Below, one piece after another: positions 9,001-15,000 of a stretch of DNA of 40,397 nucleotides. Source of the stretch: Acaryochloridaceae cyanobacterium VAR_48_metabat_390. Lineage in GTDB: Bacteria > Cyanobacteriota > Cyanobacteriia > Thermosynechococcales > Thermosynechococcaceae. Position numbers: made by a program. The stretch is from the NCBI GenBank assembly GCA_031422435.1, contig JANPLU010000057.1, positions 1 to 40,397 on the forward strand, given 5' to 3'. The number at the start of each line of letters is the position of its first letter. Position 1 is the first letter of the stretch.

Positions 9001-12000
9001 TGCTTAGAATAACAACAAGAAGAATTTAGCTTCTAGTATATCAAAATCATTGTTGCGGCACATCAGAATGACTTGAAGCTTCGAGTTAATAGACTTATGA
9101 AAAGCAATCACCACCTCAGGCTAAGTAAATGTGATCGTCCTTGTATAAATCGGCTTAAAATTGAGTTTACTTACGATCAACGTAAGCTGTTATGAACAAC
9201 TCGCTTTAGCGGTTGCGAACAATTTTAGTTTTTACAATGCATTAAAATCTTTTGCTAGTCCCGCTCCGAGCGAGTTGCTAAGTAGTTCGCTCGTCGTTTT
9301 CAGAAGCATTCAATAACTTTTTAATTTCCTCAATACTCAATGGAGGAGAACGGCGATGAATCATGGCATGACAGTTTGGGCAGACAGGACGTAGATCTTT
9401 CACAGGATCCACCTCATACTCTTCTGCAATCTCAGAAATAGGTCGGATGTGATGAACATGAATAAAACCTTCGCCCAATTCTCTAAAGACTTTGCAAAAG
9501 TTGAAGCCGCAAGCCGAACAATCCAAGCCATAGTAATCAATACATTTTTGTCGAGCTTTAGAATCTCGCTCATAGGCGTTGACCGAAACTCGCTTCACCG
9601 AACCCTCAACAAATTTTTCAGCTAGGTCTACTTCATCAGGAAAAAATTTAATAGTAGCTACAGATTCCTGAATCTGAAGACTATTTTGCCAATTCCAAAA
9701 ACGTTCTACATAATTCTCAAAATAATCATTCTCACCACAAAGTATGTTTGCAGCAGCACGAAAAATTGGGAAAAGTGTGACAAAATCATTAATTACGGGG
9801 AGAGCCGCATCAAGATTTTCGACAGGAAGTGTAAGATATTTTCCTTCAAAAGAAGTTTGATGCCAATCTCGTTCTGGAACCAATTGCAGGTTATCAATGA
9901 ACCCACTAAGATTGAATTCTTTAGTGTCATATAATGGTTCAATTGCTTCAGAATAAACGTCATAGTTACCCTGAGTTAGCAACTTAATAACACTTTCTGG
10001 GTACTTTTTTAAGACTTGGACGATTGGGTTGCCTTCTAACCCTCTGAGGCCAAAGAAAGTCACATACAATTTATCAAAAGTACATTCAAACCTTAGTTGA
10101 AAAAACCATGCTTGCCCTTTTATAGCTAATCCAGCAGTTGCCGCTTCAAACGCTTTGGTATTTCTTGCTTCGAGACGATGAGCAGGTGTAGTCGCTATTC
10201 GACAAGCTAAGAGAGCATCTGAACCGTAGACTTTGCGAATCAGATCACAAGTATAGTTGATAAGGATCTTGAGCTTGGGGACAAGTAGTGCTTGAAGTTG
10301 ATCAGCACGCTTACGAGTGTCTTCAATAGCGAAAAGACTTTGTTCAGCAAACCCTATCTGGAACGCTTCGACAAGTAGTGAAAATTCTGTCTCTTCGACT
10401 GAGTTCACATTTATACTCCTGAACTAAGGACTGTCAGAAAGTCAACGCTGAAGAGCCTTATATTCTCAGTGCATATCGCATCTACTTAACTCTAAATAGA
10501 TGTATTGCGTTCGCCTATAATCTTCAAACGGTATAGGACGACAGCCATCCACTGATATGCCTTAATTTGGCATACGGACGGGTACTTGTCCATCCACATC
10601 GCAGATTTGGAGATTAGCTAGACAATAATTCATCCATAACGCCTTATGCAGTCGTCCAGCCAAGGCTAATTTCGGGTAAGCTTTGGCAAAGCATTGTTTA
10701 CTTGCAAGATGTTGCTCGTAAGTACCGCAATCAAGTATTGGAGTCAGAAAATGTGGCGATCGCCTTTCATTGGATGAAGTATGGGTATAATGGCGATCGC
10801 CCAAGACCCAACCCTAGAATTTTGGCCTTAGATGAAGCAAAATCTACACTATTGCTACCAGCGTTTAATGGGCGGCAACATCCCAACTTAAGGAAGCTTT
10901 TAACAATCCAACTTAAGGGTGCGTGGGTTTTAGTTTTGTTTCTAAGCCGCTTTTATGGGGCAACTCAGCGCAAAAAAATCAGATGGGTTTATATGCTGAC
11001 CCCAAAAGAGAAACCATCAGCGCGTTATTAAAATCAGCATCTTTTGGCTATTCATAACCTGAAGCATCTCATCAAGATTAATGAGATGCTTCAGGGCTAA
11101 GTGTGAAGCCTGCAAACTATGGTGGAAGTCTGTTCTATCCCATAGCTGTATCAAAATGTAAGGGTTTTGAACTATGAATATCTACGTGCGCTTAAAAGCG
11201 CTGACTCTTTGCCTGAGCGGCGTCGAAGCCTTTCCGACCCAGCCTAGCCAATGGGTTTCCAAGCTTCGGAACTTGCTGTAATGGCTTTACTACAACGAAT
11301 TTTTATACTCGTGGAAAGACTTACCTATCCGCGTTGATTAGGCGGCGTCAGGCACAATTTTAACAGACAGCATTTTGTCGCCTTGGCGGATGGCGTTAAC
11401 AACATCCATATCTGTGGTTTGTCCAAAGACAGTATGAACTCCATCAAGGTGCCCTTGGGGAGAATGACAAATAAAGAACTGGCTTCCGCCCGTGTCTTTA
11501 CCAGCATGAGCCATAGATAGCGTGCCAGCAACATGCTTATTAGGGTTGATTTCGCACTTGATTTTGTAGCCGGGGCCACCAGTACCAGTGCCATTAGGGC
11601 AGCCACCCTGAATCATAAAGTCAGGAATCACACGGTGAAAGCCAAGGCCATCATAGAAACCTTTCTCAGAGAGTTCTACAAAGTTTTTGACCGTATTGGG
11701 TGCATCGGCATCAAAAAACTGAATGTTGATGGTGCCTTTGTTGGTTTCAATGATTGCGCGTGTCACAGATGCAGCCTTTTTGAGGTTTACGTTTGCAATT
11801 ATACCGTTTGCCTTGCGAGAGGCTGGACTGAGAGACAGGTAAAGATCCTTCGCAAAAGTGTTCAACAACTCATCCATCCGGTAAGCTGAGTGGAGCAATC
11901 GGTTCTGACGGGGAGCAGCCGTTGGAGGAAACAGGGAAAGAGCAGTGCAATTCTGCCGCTGTCCCGCAACTGTAATTGAGGCGTTTGGTCTACTGCCGCC

Positions 12001-15000
12001 GCTCTTAAAAGCCAGAATGCCTGCCGAGCGCTCAATCTACACTTTAGTCTTATCTGCGAGGTACAGAATGACGGCTCAATCTCCTAGTTCAGTTTCGGTT
12101 CAGCGCCGCGTTATAGACCGGACGCTTTCGGTTCCAGTACAGTCGGCACTTTACCTCTCTCTCTGTGGGCTAACGCTCTGGACGGTCTACTTCACAACCT
12201 ATCCCCCCATTCATGATGCTGTGCATTCACTGCGCCACCATACGGCGCTTGTGAGCTGTCATTAAGGGTGTGGCTGGGGCTAAGTTCAGCTCGGTTGCGT
12301 TGTCATTGTTCAGAGAAAGTAATGTCAAAGTTCAAACGTTTTGCGCTCATCAGTGCGGCTTGCCTGATGGGGGTTTTACTGTATAGCTGGGTGGCATTAT
12401 CCCAGTTACCGCAGGCGTCCATTAAGCTCACCACGAGTCCAGTGCTTTCACAGATTAGACCGTTTGAGGCGGAATCTTCCGATCCGCAGCCTCCGGGACA
12501 GCTTACGCTTCAGGCTTTAGATCGGTCTGGGCAGGCGTTAGAGAATGCTAAAATTCATCTCACAATTCTGACTCAACCTAAGAATCCTTGGTTTACGACA
12601 GATTTTCCGATTGTGGAGGGCACGACGCTATTGGATATGGAGGCTCTAACGCCCAAGGGTGAGCTAAAGCTTCAGCAAATGCTGCCGATTCGAGGGGATT
12701 ACAGGCTACAGATCAAGGTCACGCCTGTGGCTGAAAATGCATTTGCCCCTATTCAGGAAACCTTACGACTGCGAGTCTCTGAAAACTGGGTTAAGTATCG
12801 CAACTTAGGCATTGTGGCGACCATTTTGGTTGCGGTAGGGCTGGGTGGTGGCTGGGTAATCGGTAGCAGACAAAAGATCTTGCCTGGAGAGGTTGCACCA
12901 CAGCGGGTCAAGCTGCTGCTGAGTGGCGTGACGGTGGTGGCGATCGCCGCACTTCTCTTCGTCAATATCAGTGCAGAATTTGCCCAATCCCACGGGTCAA
13001 TGGCAATGTCCCACGGCACAGAAGAAGCTCCCCCCTCTAATAAACCTTCTAAGCTCAATACCAAGGGGCTGGCAGTTGAACTATCGGGGGATGTCAGCGC
13101 TACGGTCGGTCAACCCGCAAAGCTACAGGTTAGCGTGATGGATACCAAGACTAATAAACCTGTCACGAATGTAGCGCTGAAAGTAACAACGACCCAGCTC
13201 GAAAATAAATGGGTTGCATTTGCCTATGAGGGCACTCCAGACCTTAACGGAACGTTTGTATGGCAGCAACAGTTCTTTGATGGTGCGCCCCATCATGTTG
13301 AAGTTGAGATTGCGCCTCAAGCCAACGCAGATCGACAGTTTAAGCCGCTTCAAGTTGCTCAAACTATTGCGGTAGAAGGCGTTGCACCACCGATCCAGGT
13401 ACGGTTGATTACGCTGACATACTTTACATTGCTGGTTGGGCTGGGGCTACTGCTGGGGTTAGAACTTCAGCGGCGACGCACTCACTCACCCAGATTAACC
13501 TGAGCTGCATTGGATCATTTCAGGTCTTTAATTCCCTTCCCTTTTAGAGAAAATTATGGCAGCGAAAATTCCCGTTACGGTGATTACCGGATTTTTGGGC
13601 AGTGGCAAAACCACACTGATTCGGCAACAGCTTCAAAACAATCAGGGTCGGCGCATTGCAGTTTTGGTCAATGAATTTGGCGAAATTGGCATTGATGGCG
13701 ACCTGCTGCGCGATTGCCAGGTCTGTGATGAAGACGGGCAGGTGTTGCCCAATCAAGAGATGCCCAACATTGTAGAACTCACCAACGGCTGTCTTTGCTG
13801 CACGGTGCAAGAAGAATTTCTGCCCACCATGCAGGAGTTACTGAAGCGCCGCGACCAAATCGACTGCATCTTAATTGAAACGTCTGGGTTAGCCCTACCT
13901 AAACCCTTGATCCAGGCGTTTCGCTGGGATGAGATCCGCACGGGCGCAACGGTAGACGGCGTAATTACCGTGGTAGACTGCGAAGCCGTCTCGACAGGTA
14001 AGCTAGCGGCGGATCTGGATGCCCTGAATGCCCAGCGCGAAGCGGATCCGAATTTAGACCACGAGTCGCCTCTTGAAGAGCTATTTGAAGATCAGTTGGC
14101 CTGTGCCGATCTCGTGCTGTTGACCAAAACCGACTGTGTGGATAGCCAAACCCAGGCAGAGGTGAGATCGCGGGTTCAGCAAGAACTGCGACCTGGGGTC
14201 AAAATCATCCCCTGCTGCGACGGGCAAATTAGCTCAGAGATTTTGCTGGGCTTTAATGCCGCCGTAGAAGACAACCTAGAGACACGTCCCAGCCACCACG
14301 ACACAGAAGAAGAGCATGACCATGATGATGACATCCTTTCTGTGCCAATCGTTTCAGCTCAGGCACTCGATCCACAGGCGCTGGTGCTGAAGCTCAAGAC
14401 GTTAATTGCAGAGCAGGATATTTATCGCATTAAGGGTTTTGTGAATGTGGCCAATAAACCGATGCGGATGGTGTTACAAGGGGTGGGCGATCGCATTGAG
14501 ACGTTTTACGACCGTCCGTGGCGAACCGATGAAGCCCGTGCAACCCGCTTGGTTTTTATTGGGCGTAATTTAGACACTGCAAAAATTTCTGCCGTAATTC
14601 ATGCCTAGATCTGGCGCACTGCCAGCACTCGCTCGGCCTTAAATGCTAGCGACGGTCATGAAATTCGATACGGCTCCCCCGCAGGCTAACGTCATAGCGC
14701 TGCAAAAAATCTTGACCCAGTAGACCCATTTCCATATCTGGTCCTGCGATCGCCACCTGAACCTGAGTCTTCATCAGCCCCCCAACGGTCATCGCATTGA
14801 GATACACAATGGGCATTTGCGTTAATCCATTAGCGGTCTTAAAGGTCACATAATCAACGATTTGTGAAGAACTAATTCCCAGCGCTCTCGCCATGGGACG
14901 CGTAATGGTTGTAATGCTGGCGCCTGAATCAACCATCATTTCAAAGGTTCTGCGCTGGTTGAAAACCACGTCAATTACCGGAACGCCACCACTGCGTCGC

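Follow-up and report, generated by a model that had tools for sequence, protein, structure and literature searches.

CbtA and CbtB (PF09490 and PF09489) make up a predicted cobalt transporter, and, according to the Pfam family description, such systems also occur without another permease. In Methylococcus capsulatus, knock-down of cbtB is reported to improve growth at 1 uM cobalt and sgRNAs against cbtB and cbtA were enriched in a screen (PMC13108547). Among permeases of other kinds, the six-helix HupE/UreJ is described as a known B12-riboswitch-controlled cobalt importer of cyanobacteria, NicO-family proteins as having 6–8 helices, and NhlF (NiCoT) as a cobalt permease tied to cobalt-type nitrile hydratase in Rhodococcus (PMC7689651). 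The locus studied here resembles some of these in part: it shares with CbtA/CbtB the small-subunit family and a B12 riboswitch or cob-cluster setting with cobW or cobN nearby, and with HupE/UreJ the riboswitch control in cyanobacteria and a presumed role in supplying cobalt for B12. However, its larger protein is related in sequence to neither CbtA nor HupE/UreJ, and the pair has no homology to NhlF and a different architecture.

Gene order and the partner of CbtB

The window, a 40,397-nt stretch of DNA from Acaryochloridaceae cyanobacterium VAR_48_metabat_390, carries on its plus strand an RF00174 aptamer, a 65-aa cbtB-type gene, a 393-aa gene of an unnamed family and cobW, in that order (Table 1), as a preliminary description had stated. 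This aptamer is the sole RF00174 match above cut-off in a scan of the whole 3.7-Mb genome; a second, weaker riboswitch-like site (26.2 bits) lies upstream of cobG (TIGR02435, 318 bits). Since cobG is present, the genome uses the oxygen-dependent B12 route, which needs CobW and CobN. The short leader holds no terminator-like site between the aptamer and the cbtB ATG and is presumed to be an expression platform acting on translation. cobW starts 52 bases 3' of the 393-aa gene on the same strand, and the gene after it lies on the opposite strand. On balance we lean towards reading riboswitch, cbtB-type gene, 393-aa gene and cobW as one B12-repressed unit supplying cobalt for cobalamin synthesis, in which the two membrane proteins would form a metal-capturing complex.

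Table 1. Features of the cbtB locus, with window positions and the evidence for each.
Feature	Position	Strand	Evidence and remarks
Cobalamin riboswitch aptamer (RF00174)	11883..12042	+	50.2 bits (gathering score 31.5), E 9.5e-10, full model 1-189
Short leader, aptamer to start codon	12043..12067	+	GAGG at 12058-12061, six bases 5' of ATG
cbtB-type gene, 65 aa	12068..12265	+	PF09489 match just under cut-off
Unnamed 393-aa family gene, CbtB partner	12322..13503	+	Homologue search and structural model; no family match
N-terminal helix, residues 3-27	12328..12402	+	AlphaFold model; n-region KFKR
First Ig-like beta-sandwich, residues 33-152	12418..12777	+	Model strands; holds PFEAE, TDFPxVE, PIRGxY
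Membrane helix 2, residues 156-181	12787..12864	+	Model; glycine-rich GLGGGWVIG; invariant E154 just ahead
Membrane helix 3, residues 194-224	12901..12993	+	Model; ends SAEFAQSH, then Met/His segment SMAMSH
Second Ig-like beta-sandwich, residues 244-352	13051..13377	+	Model; contains QFFDGAPH
Membrane helix 4, residues 358-387	13393..13482	+	Model; then basic tail QRRRTH
cobW, COG0523 GTPase, cobalt chaperone of aerobic B12 route	13556..14608	+	TIGR02475 491.4 bits (cut-off 332.1); PF02492 and PF07683

The 65-aa protein scores 24.9 bits on PF09489, just below the cut-off of 27, in agreement with its earlier designation as CbtB-like. Its single membrane helix spans roughly residues 24-44, and its C terminus forms a tail H49-x3-H53-x2-R56-H57-x6-C64-H65. 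All 75 small partner proteins scanned from related loci match PF09489, 69 of them with at least 27 bits, and the six tail residues (H-x3-H-x2-RH-x6-CH) are invariant among 29 sequences; the spacing is identical in a canonical CbtB adjoining CbtA, cobW and cobN. Judged by its sequence, the small protein of the window is a CbtB.

Neither Pfam nor NCBIfam yields a match to the 393-aa protein below E 0.03. A homologue search gives 816 hits, and clustering at 50% identity gives 370 clusters; among the 120 hits that were listed none has a Pfam domain or a product name other than hypothetical; the family is, as first proposed, unnamed and outside these collections. Its supposed restriction to Cyanobacteria did not hold: 25 of 80 family loci bear titles of other phyla, and the family extends to Chloroflexota, Gemmatimonadota, Oligoflexia, Verrucomicrobiota and Binatia. 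The family gene has a cbtB neighbour in 77 of the 80 loci, across several phyla, and likewise in all five extra cyanobacterial loci examined and in a Stanieria plasmid locus (L089), so that the near-constant pairing claimed at the outset is upheld.

No CbtA match above cut-off was found in the VAR_48_metabat_390 genome, in 301 cyanobacterial genomes or in five further carrier genomes traced from loci labelled as non-cyanobacterial, consistent with the original view that the 393-aa protein takes the place of CbtA. A remote CbtA was considered as its identity and rejected, the profile-profile comparison left pending by the preliminary description giving an hhalign probability of 1.1%, and none of 46 family members matches PF09490. 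Both proteins have a His-rich segment near the membrane, but CbtA is modelled, with low confidence (pLDDT 59.5), as all-helical, whereas the 393-aa family combines two beta-sandwiches with four helices.

Architecture and modelled complex

The AlphaFold model of the 393-aa protein (pLDDT 80.3, pTM 0.73) has the four helices and two beta-sandwich domains described earlier. Its two halves are homologous (hhalign probability 96.8%), which at the level of sequence profiles makes the protein an internal duplication of a module of membrane helix, Ig-like sandwich and membrane helix; some genomes encode it as two separate genes. The N-terminal helix may be a signal peptide, with possible cleavage after VALS, or a signal anchor, and is absent from the listed interface residues of the complex model described below. 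By the positive-inside rule the first sandwich would be periplasmic, and the basic tail after helix 4 would lie on the cytoplasmic side.

Fold matches of the first sandwich are to macroglobulin and Ig-like domains (Z 6.0-6.9; CD109, 8s3o_A, Z 6.9, rmsd 2.0, 94 aligned), and the second matches an alpha2-macroglobulin domain (2p9r_B, Z 7.9, rmsd 1.7, 92 aligned). Ig-like or transthyretin-like periplasmic metal-handling domains (YtkA-like PF13115, FixH, CarboxypepD_reg) are likewise membrane-anchored, periplasm-facing beta-sandwiches in metal systems, and NikK/NikL, accessory parts of NikMNQO, are comparable. YtkA is matched by 10 of 46 family members and CarboxypepD_reg by 13 of 46, mostly weakly (best E 6.5e-7 and 1.2e-8), only two matches passing a Pfam cut-off among 30 distant members for which scores were read; the protein of the window reaches E 0.09 on YtkA. 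The duplicated module, the helices and the pairing with CbtB are, however, peculiar to the 393-aa family. PmoB, too, binds metal on its periplasmic side and has two beta-sandwich domains flanking membrane helices; two AMO entries in the Foldseek list have TM-scores of 0.15-0.16, and the likeness to PmoB/AmoB is drawn as an analogy of layout, with no relation claimed.

The His/Met-rich motifs had been called invariant. This stands for D320-G-..-H324, which like TDFP.VE, PIRG.Y and E154 is invariant or nearly so across phyla. It fails for the segment after helix 3, where H224 changes, some Nostoc-type rows have 'PG' for 'SH', and other phyla read AHG..H. Model confidence is low for residues 216-229.

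A complex model of CbtB with the 393-aa protein gave ipSAE values of 0.70, 0.70 and 0.68, against 0.00 for the best of three controls. For calibration, 116 of the 157 solved complexes come up to this mark, compared with 2 of the 215 mismatched pairs; the calibration holds only roughly here, since the score rests on our own alignments. The runs agree in at least 67% of contacts, with partner pLDDT of at least 68. The modelled interface comprises motifs 49-51, 91-97, 154-155, 319-321 and 353-357 together with helices 2-4; helix 2 packs on the CbtB helix, the tightest contacts join residues 365-376 of helix 4 to CbtB residues 26-38, and the invariant His/Cys tail of CbtB is placed on conserved motifs of its partner. 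Together with the adjacency and the PF09489 matches, the model favours the proposed partnership and suggests that the two proteins bind. No obvious polar path was seen through the four or five helices of the modelled complex.

Genomic settings and proposed role

That riboswitches stand upstream of family loci was borne out in a strongly clade-dependent manner: RF00174 precedes 14 of the 18 cyanobacterial loci that fall outside the Nostocales clade and none of the 45 inside it, the largest clade of family loci, and no sub-threshold match (E up to 1) appeared in three Nostocales-clade loci rechecked. Family loci in three lineages have riboswitches, counting Oligoflexus (104 and 106 bits) and an uncultured lineage (L073) with the cyanobacterial one. 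Eight of the 25 non-cyanobacterial loci lie among cob genes (CobN with ChlI/VWA, CbiX, CobO, CbiG, CbiA, methylases); no link to B12 was seen in eight Binatia-type loci. The Stenomitos locus (L067) has the pair behind the genes for the beta chain, alpha chain and accessory protein of a nitrile hydratase, the position that NhlF occupies in the Rhodococcus cluster; with VCTLCSC in its alpha chain and a TIGR03889 accessory protein (67 bits), this enzyme is of cobalt type. The riboswitches in Oligoflexus and the uncultured lineage, the cob clusters with CobN or CbiX and the nitrile hydratase operon support the earlier proposal of a B12-repressed cobalt supply, in which the pair itself would perform uptake.

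The pair might instead handle Cu, Ni, Mn, Zn or several metals, cobalt being one use, and serve in the Nostocales clade in a redox-linked process with a multicopper oxidase. A divergent two-domain multicopper oxidase gene is present in 32 of the 45 Nostocales loci, which lack the riboswitch, and at L089; ABC-3, cation-efflux, GDT1 and ArsR genes lie near some loci, on two plasmids the pair sits in metal-resistance islands among heavy-metal ATPase, cation transporter, Nramp and MerF/CopZ genes, and the Met-rich SMAMSH segment resembles Cu(I) motifs. Yet at both plasmid loci a cobalamin riboswitch (59.2 and 57 bits) still stands immediately ahead of cbtB, the tail spacing of CbtB is that of CbtA-type systems, and riboswitch, cob clusters and nitrile hydratase all indicate cobalt, so that we regard this broader role as quite improbable. 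Import of B12 or a precursor, as by many riboswitch-controlled btu genes, seems highly improbable: cobalamin riboswitches often govern corrinoid uptake, as they do in Anabaena (PMC10878165), and a Peripla_BP_2 gene lies close to one locus (L009), but the His/Cys tail and acidic/His motifs are better suited to an ion than to a corrinoid of 1.3 kDa, one locus lies next to a cobalt-type nitrile hydratase, an enzyme without corrinoid, and other loci adjoin cobW and the chelatase genes CobN and CbiX.

An accessory role, in which CbtB and the 393-aa protein would be a periplasmic device, anchored in the membrane, that captures or chaperones metal and passes cobalt to a separate permease (Nramp, CbiMQO, HupE or NicO) without carrying it across itself, is, in our estimate, unlikely, although it would account for several observations. 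Nramp genes are near seven surveyed loci and two further ones, CbiM/CbiQ near nine in Nostocales, and a HupE-like ORF directly follows the pair in L093. The VAR_48_metabat_390 genome, where neither HupE nor CbiM was found, has Nramp and a NicO-family gene elsewhere as other possible cobalt routes. The Ig-like domains, not the helices, hold most of the mass and conserved residues, and the Ig-like metal binders CrdA, HftA and Tp34 with Co(II) are among the fold matches (Z 5.8-6.0), not above other matches. Nearby permease genes are as compatible with such an accessory role as with one in transport, and HupE is also present in 16 of 21 cyanobacterial carrier genomes, so it and the pair are not simple alternatives. 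Against an accessory role, the window operon has no permease gene, the Chloroflexota cob-cluster loci yielded none apart from a weak CbiM-like match about 3 kb downstream in L038, CbtA/CbtB systems are likewise described without another permease, and the helices are conserved too (GLGGGWVIG, LLLSG in the family alignment) and make the tightest modelled contacts.

For the favoured cobalt-supply unit, the topology, binding site, metal and direction of transport that we infer are as follows. CbtB, with one helix and a periplasmic His/Cys tail, would assemble with the duplicated module of the 393-aa protein into a membrane complex, in which D94, E99, E154, D320 and H324 of both sandwiches may meet CbtB H49, H53, H57, C64 and H65 just above the helix bundle and bind periplasmic Co(II). 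Inward passage of the metal would follow, either across the glycine-rich bundle, which might be oligomeric, or through a permease to which it is handed over, with cytoplasmic CobW taking it up to serve the CobN chelatase; at high B12 the riboswitch would turn the unit off. The 393-aa protein is a real, hitherto unnamed partner of CbtB, probably serving in cobalt acquisition.

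The operon and its CbtB

The operon consists of a cobalamin riboswitch aptamer, a cbtB-type ORF, the gene of the 393-aa membrane protein and cobW, and the gene that follows cobW lies on the opposite strand (see table). Within the organism's own assembly (3.7 Mb, 136 contigs, 99.99% complete) this is the only site over the Rfam cut-off for RF00174, and a second, sub-threshold cobalamin riboswitch-like site (26.2 bits) precedes cobG, the gene for precorrin-3B synthase (TIGR02435, 318 bits). Since cobG and CobN/ChlH-family genes are present, corrinoid synthesis in this organism seems to follow the oxygen-dependent route, which uses CobW and CobN. 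HupE and CbiM were not found in this genome, which carries an Nramp and a NicO-family gene. Neither a terminator scan nor single-sequence folding of the riboswitch leader was informative. A single metatranscriptome run contained contigs 90–98% like parts of the operon, one of them spanning the junction between cbtB and the family gene, but as assembled contigs they are no measure of transcription, and the parts left uncovered are meaningless.

Three minus-strand ORFs in the vicinity may be recorded here. A cyclophilin-type isomerase (PF00160, E 1.2e-40) lies upstream of the operon and probably starts further in, because its longest frame enters the riboswitch by 16 bases on the other strand; a retropepsin-like aspartyl protease (PF13975, E 7.9e-21) lies downstream of cobW; and a 376-aa ORF, which matched no NCBIfam family, has a C-terminal Cys/His pattern (CSACG...HVHHIRP...CPNCH) resembling an HNH nuclease motif.

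Location of features in the window, in the 393-aa protein and at related loci
Feature	Location	Strand	Details
376-aa ORF, HNH-like pattern	window 9278-10408	-	
Cyclophilin-type isomerase	window 11338-11898	-	
Cobalamin riboswitch aptamer	window 11883-12042	+	RF00174, 50.2 bits (gathering score 31.5), E 9.5e-10, model positions 1-189 (full)
cbtB-type ORF	window 12068-12265	+	65 codons; starts 25 bases past aptamer, behind GAGG
Metatranscriptome contig across cbtB/family-gene junction	window 12176-12413		
Family ORF	window 12322-13503	+	393 codons; 56 bases past cbtB
cobW	window 13556-14608	+	TIGR02475 equivalog, 491.4 bits (cut-off 332.1)
Retropepsin-like aspartyl protease	window 14646-15344	-	
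N-terminal helix	residues 3-27		AlphaFold model
First beta-sandwich	residues 33-152		AlphaFold model
Helices 2 and 3	residues 156-181, 194-224		AlphaFold model
Second beta-sandwich	residues 244-352		AlphaFold model
Last helix	residues 358-387		AlphaFold model
Sub-threshold riboswitch-like site, own genome	C112:95624-95757		locus L004
Nitrile hydratase cluster with cbtB and family gene	L067:716-4738		Stenomitos MAG
Split family gene	L075:3938-5142		Verrucomicrobia
Half-size forms	L066:3986-5077, L038:3908-4477		
His-rich family variant	L021:3851-5461		
Decayed locus	L065:3560-5290		Phormidesmis MAG
Nostocales cbtB/family-gene spacer (example)	L040:3584-4000		
Multicopper oxidase, Nostocales clade (example)	L024:1701-2723	-	
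Multicopper oxidase, further locus	L089:4626-5714		
Riboswitch, cbtB, family gene, HupE-like ORF	L093:2392-4473	-	genome G023

The product of the 65-codon ORF scores 24.9 bits against the CbtB model PF09489 (cut-off 27) and 13.2 bits against TIGR02459 (cut-off 64.4). PF09489 is matched by all 75 small partner proteins from related loci, at 27 bits or more in 69 of them. Like other CbtB proteins, that of the window is small, has a single membrane helix and ends in a His-rich metal motif, H-x3-H-x2-RH-x6-CH, of which H49, H53, R56, H57, C64 and H65 (window numbering) are unchanged in 29 partner proteins spanning all lineages. The same tail spacing is found in the canonical CbtB of an Azotobacter plasmid (PF09489, 79.3 bits), a locus that was reached via cobW and in which cbtB adjoins annotated CbtA, cobW and cobN; a tblastn search of plasmids with a Binatia CbtB returned cyanobacterial plasmids only. 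Judged by its sequence, the small protein of the window is a divergent member of CbtB that falls just below the HMM cut-off. The Pfam family description states that CbtB is co-located with CbtA; the neighbour of the window's CbtB is the gene of the 393-aa family, in place of CbtA.

A membrane protein family distinct from CbtA

The 393-aa protein has no Pfam or NCBIfam match better than E 0.03, the best Pfam listings being Cation_efflux (E 0.034) and YtkA (PF13115, E 0.091); one distant member of the family reaches 30.4 bits against the latter (cut-off 25.9). Of the known cobalt and nickel permeases, HupE (PF04955), CbiM (PF01891), NicO (PF03824) and Nramp (PF01566) gave no HMM match to the 393-aa protein. 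A word-index search gave 816 relatives. No Pfam domain is recorded for any of the 120 that were listed, and product names, where given, are 'hypothetical', as is that of the large gene in two annotated loci that were inspected. The ESM Atlas returned unnamed cyanobacterial clusters only. In an exhaustive profile search, clusters of relatives at 50% identity numbered 370 at an E limit of 0.001 and 276 at 1e-10. Species genomes, when scanned, offered 322 candidate stretches; 302 were confirmed, and 80 loci were kept for analysis.

By record title, 55 of these loci are cyanobacterial or cyanobacterial-looking and 25 are not, the latter being from Chloroflexota (Ardenticatenaceae, Caldilineaceae), Gemmatimonadetes, Oligoflexus and Oligoflexaceae, Verrucomicrobia and Opitutales, Candidatus Binatia and uncultured bacteria. 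The family is thus present in cyanobacteria, as the preliminary description held, but is not limited to them, and even there it is patchy, occurring in 21 of 301 sampled genomes, 15 of the 21 from one family-level group. Across phyla, identity falls to about 25–30%, and the (nearly) invariant elements include TDFPxVE, PIRGxY, D320-G-x2-H324, and E154, which precedes helix 2. A His/Met stretch that follows helix 3 was earlier given as invariant but cannot be counted among them: it differs even among cyanobacteria, and other phyla have AHG..H instead. One contig titled as a Tatlockia sp. MAG (L085) carries a pair and riboswitch that look cyanobacterial, its CbtB being 62% identical to that of the window, and the bin may be mislabelled or contaminated.

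The AlphaFold model of the 393-aa protein (pLDDT 80.3, pTM 0.73) has four helices and two beta-sandwiches. Both termini and the loop joining helices 2 and 3 carry basic residues, and by the positive-inside rule both sandwiches are therefore predicted to be periplasmic. The two halves are homologous, the first sandwich with helix 2 aligning to the second sandwich with helix 4 (hhalign 96.8%, E 2.2e-10, 115 columns). Natural splitting into two half-size genes is seen in Verrucomicrobia/Opitutales and in one Chloroflexota genome; in the verrucomicrobial locus L075, a 175-aa first half is followed, with a 4-base overlap, by a 227-aa gene that matches the second half of the family at 99.8%, and half-size forms also occur at L066 and L038 and among the cluster representatives. 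Fold searches (Foldseek, VIA-align) returned generic Ig/macroglobulin-type domains and no specific relative, with Z up to 7.9, the best match (2p9r_B, Z 7.9, rmsd 1.7, 92 aligned) lying in the range expected by chance for such folds; a family profile gave only marginal matches (E 0.04–2, mostly transthyretin) to the sequences of solved structures. No claim of a known or a new fold is drawn from these searches. A 537-aa variant of the family (L021) has long His-rich inserts, such as AHDHPDHGEPGAPGHHD and GHDHEHGEDTHGE, and may carry a metal arm within the same chain.

By context the 393-aa protein is CbtA-like, since it adjoins CbtB and is under B12 control or within cob clusters, yet it is not a member of the CbtA family. 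The preliminary description had left a remote link between the two to be sought by profile–profile comparison, and the outcome is negative (hhalign probability 1.1%), the CbtA profile used being a narrow, Pseudomonas-type one of 22 relatives of the Azotobacter protein, 70–79% identical to its first sequence. PF09490 gives no match to the window protein at E up to 10, and at the same limit is absent from the 25 families listed for 46 family members. CbtA is characterised by some five membrane helices without a large soluble domain, in contrast to the four helices and two sandwiches modelled here; its own model consists of helices only, at low confidence (pLDDT 59.5). That CbtA itself is missing, as had been stated for the window's genome, extends further: none scored over the cut-off there, in 301 cyanobacterial genomes or in five other carrier genomes. 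The only weak PF09490 match in cyanobacteria (L007) is a 420-aa multi-helix ORF, of MFS type by eye, and was taken as chance. A phylum-level sample centred on the genome of L085 (G301) had no CbtA in 251 genomes, which adds nothing because its genome sizes looked cyanobacterial where Pseudomonadota were expected.

Pairing with CbtB and genomic contexts

The reported adjacency of cbtB and the family gene proved robust, being found in 77 of the 80 loci. A simple motif search placed 74 of the cbtB genes upstream on the same strand, and the others lie downstream (L016), have Cys replaced by Phe (L043) or are frameshifted (L065). Two of the three loci without an adjacent cbtB have less than 300 bases of upstream DNA, and the third is L021, where none was seen in the upstream stretch inspected or by motif search of the locus. 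The L065 locus is decayed, its family gene being shortened beside an IS240-type transposase and its riboswitch kept (51.2 bits).

Complex prediction supports binding between the two proteins. The modelled pair reached ipSAE values of 0.70, 0.70 and 0.68, compared with 0.00 in three of three controls, with at least 67% of contacts in common between runs and a partner pLDDT of at least 68. Of 157 solved complexes 116 attain this ipSAE mark, as do 2 of 215 mismatched pairs; these counts are only rough because the analysis used its own alignments. In the model, the CbtB helix would lie against helices 2 and 4, and its tail (residues 53–65) would contact residues 49–51, 91–97, 154–155, 319–321 and 353–357, which are the conserved motifs of the family.

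Several contexts link the pair to cobalt. In the window, the link is the cobW gene in the operon. RF00174 lies upstream of cbtB in 14 of the 18 cyanobacterial loci outside a Nostocales clade (the window, L023, L031, L041, L065, L071, L085, L088, L089 and L093–L097), as well as in two Oligoflexus genomes (103.7 and 105.6 bits) and an uncultured lineage (L073). Genes of B12 synthesis surround 8 of the 25 non-cyanobacterial loci, for example CobN with ChlI-like and VWA genes just upstream (L011), CobS, CobO, CbiX and one methylase (L073), or CbiG, methylases, CobO and CbiA (L013). A Stenomitos MAG (L067) ties the pair to cobalt use outside B12 synthesis: genes for a COG0523 GTPase and for the beta, alpha and accessory proteins of a nitrile hydratase are followed by cbtB and the family gene, the accessory protein, at 67 bits, is over the TIGR03889 cut-off, and the alpha chain has the motif VCTLCSC, which we take to be the signature of a cobalt-type nitrile hydratase.

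Other contexts complicate this picture. The family tree (79 rows; a quick search with SH-aLRT support only, leaving out the partial or split copies L013, L015, L021, L038, L065, L066, L067, L075 and L085) has one cyanobacterial clade of 60 rows, with a well-supported Nostocales subclade of 45 rows inside it. RF00174 was found at none of these 45 loci, although at one of them (L063) the upstream DNA is too short for a verdict, and a permissive scan of eight loci, three of them from this clade, gave no cobalamin match at E up to 1. At 32 of the 45, a two-domain multicopper oxidase (about 340–370 aa, Cu-oxidase_2 and Cu-oxidase_3) is transcribed divergently from cbtB, as is also seen at L089, and some such loci have a ferric-reductase-like membrane gene beyond the oxidase. 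CbiM/CbiQ lie downstream in nine, and several have an Nramp, cation-efflux or ABC-3 transporter gene nearby. Two plasmids (Oscillatoria PCC 7112, Stanieria PCC 7437) still have the cobalamin riboswitch, yet surround the pair with genes for heavy-metal ATPases, MerF/CopZ and cation transporters; one of them also has an Nramp there, the other a multicopper oxidase. No B12 link was found at the eight Binatia-type loci. In Nostocales, 139–614 bases of poorly conserved DNA separate cbtB from the family gene, with palindromic repeats of the GTAGAGATG...CATCTCTAC type and no common RNA element; the two genes are much closer in the window's clade (56 bases apart in the window).

A phyletic complementarity with HupE was considered and ruled out; as 16 of the 21 cyanobacterial carriers in the sample of 301 genomes have both, HupE and the CbtB pair are not alternatives. 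At L093 the riboswitch, cbtB and family gene are followed by a 147-aa HupE-like ORF that covers profile positions 45–163 only, with a TAA inside the wider match, and is either a truncated or a decayed HupE. An AAA+ ATPase of 400–700 aa is encoded immediately behind the family gene in 13 of the 25 non-cyanobacterial loci (L008, L009, L011, L012, L014, L016, L020, L027, L038, L066, L073, L075 and L076) and in no cyanobacterial one. It corresponds to the ATPase portion of LonB (TIGR00764 positions about 4–400, 406–487 bits, below the cut-off) without the protease domain, and HEAT repeats are present at the N-terminus of some copies. This ATPase may be a third component, in the position held by cobW in the window.

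A proposed role in cobalt acquisition and the place of CbtB

The most economical account, in keeping with the proposal of the preliminary description, is that CbtB and the 393-aa protein would form a periplasm-facing membrane complex that acquires cobalt, would be repressed by B12 in the window's organism, and would supply the metal to CobW and the chelatase. Such a complex may carry the ion across the membrane itself or may load a permease, and the Nostocales form may handle cobalt or another metal. Compared with CbtAB, the adaptor and the locus logic are shared, and the large subunit is unrelated and unnamed.

A full-text literature search found no paper describing a CbtB partner other than CbtA, and in the literature searched the only direct test of CbtAB is a CRISPRi knock-down. 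In that study, on Methylococcus capsulatus, sgRNAs against cbtB and cbtA were enriched in the screen, and knock-down of cbtB gave better growth at 1 uM cobalt, an effect also obtained by lowering cobalt (PMC13108547). Reviews list HupE, CbiMNQO, NiCoT, CbtJKL and CorA as cobalt importers (PMC7689651), and a 2009 survey gives CbtAB, CbtC-G and CbtX as absent from 16 cyanobacteria and 7 Chloroflexi (PMC2667541). There is a small residual chance that the 393-aa family is identical to a member of CbtC-G or CbtX.

A more far-reaching combination of these observations can be entertained, and we consider it rather doubtful. The family would be a new class of metal-ion uptake machine, unlike known transporter folds, in which a duplicated and sometimes split protein (helix, Ig-like sandwich, helix) is served by the His/Cys tail of CbtB as a movable metal-loading arm. 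Two unrelated partners, CbtA and this family, would in that case share CbtB as a universal adaptor; the Nostocales form would have lost B12 control and become coupled to a multicopper oxidase for redox-linked metal acquisition, and in other phyla the coupling would be to the protease-less LonB-like AAA+ ATPase.

B12 production is limited by cobalt supply, and much of the microbial world is provided with B12 by cyanobacteria and other bacteria. To our knowledge, the cobalt uptake routes of many B12 producers are only predicted, and we know of no structure of the CbtAB system. The present analysis names, for CbtB, a second and unrelated partner, which record titles place in at least six phylum-level groups, and specific residues to mutate and a clear gene pair to delete are now available. 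It also shows that the constant part of these systems is CbtB, not CbtA, and the annotation of such loci should therefore change.
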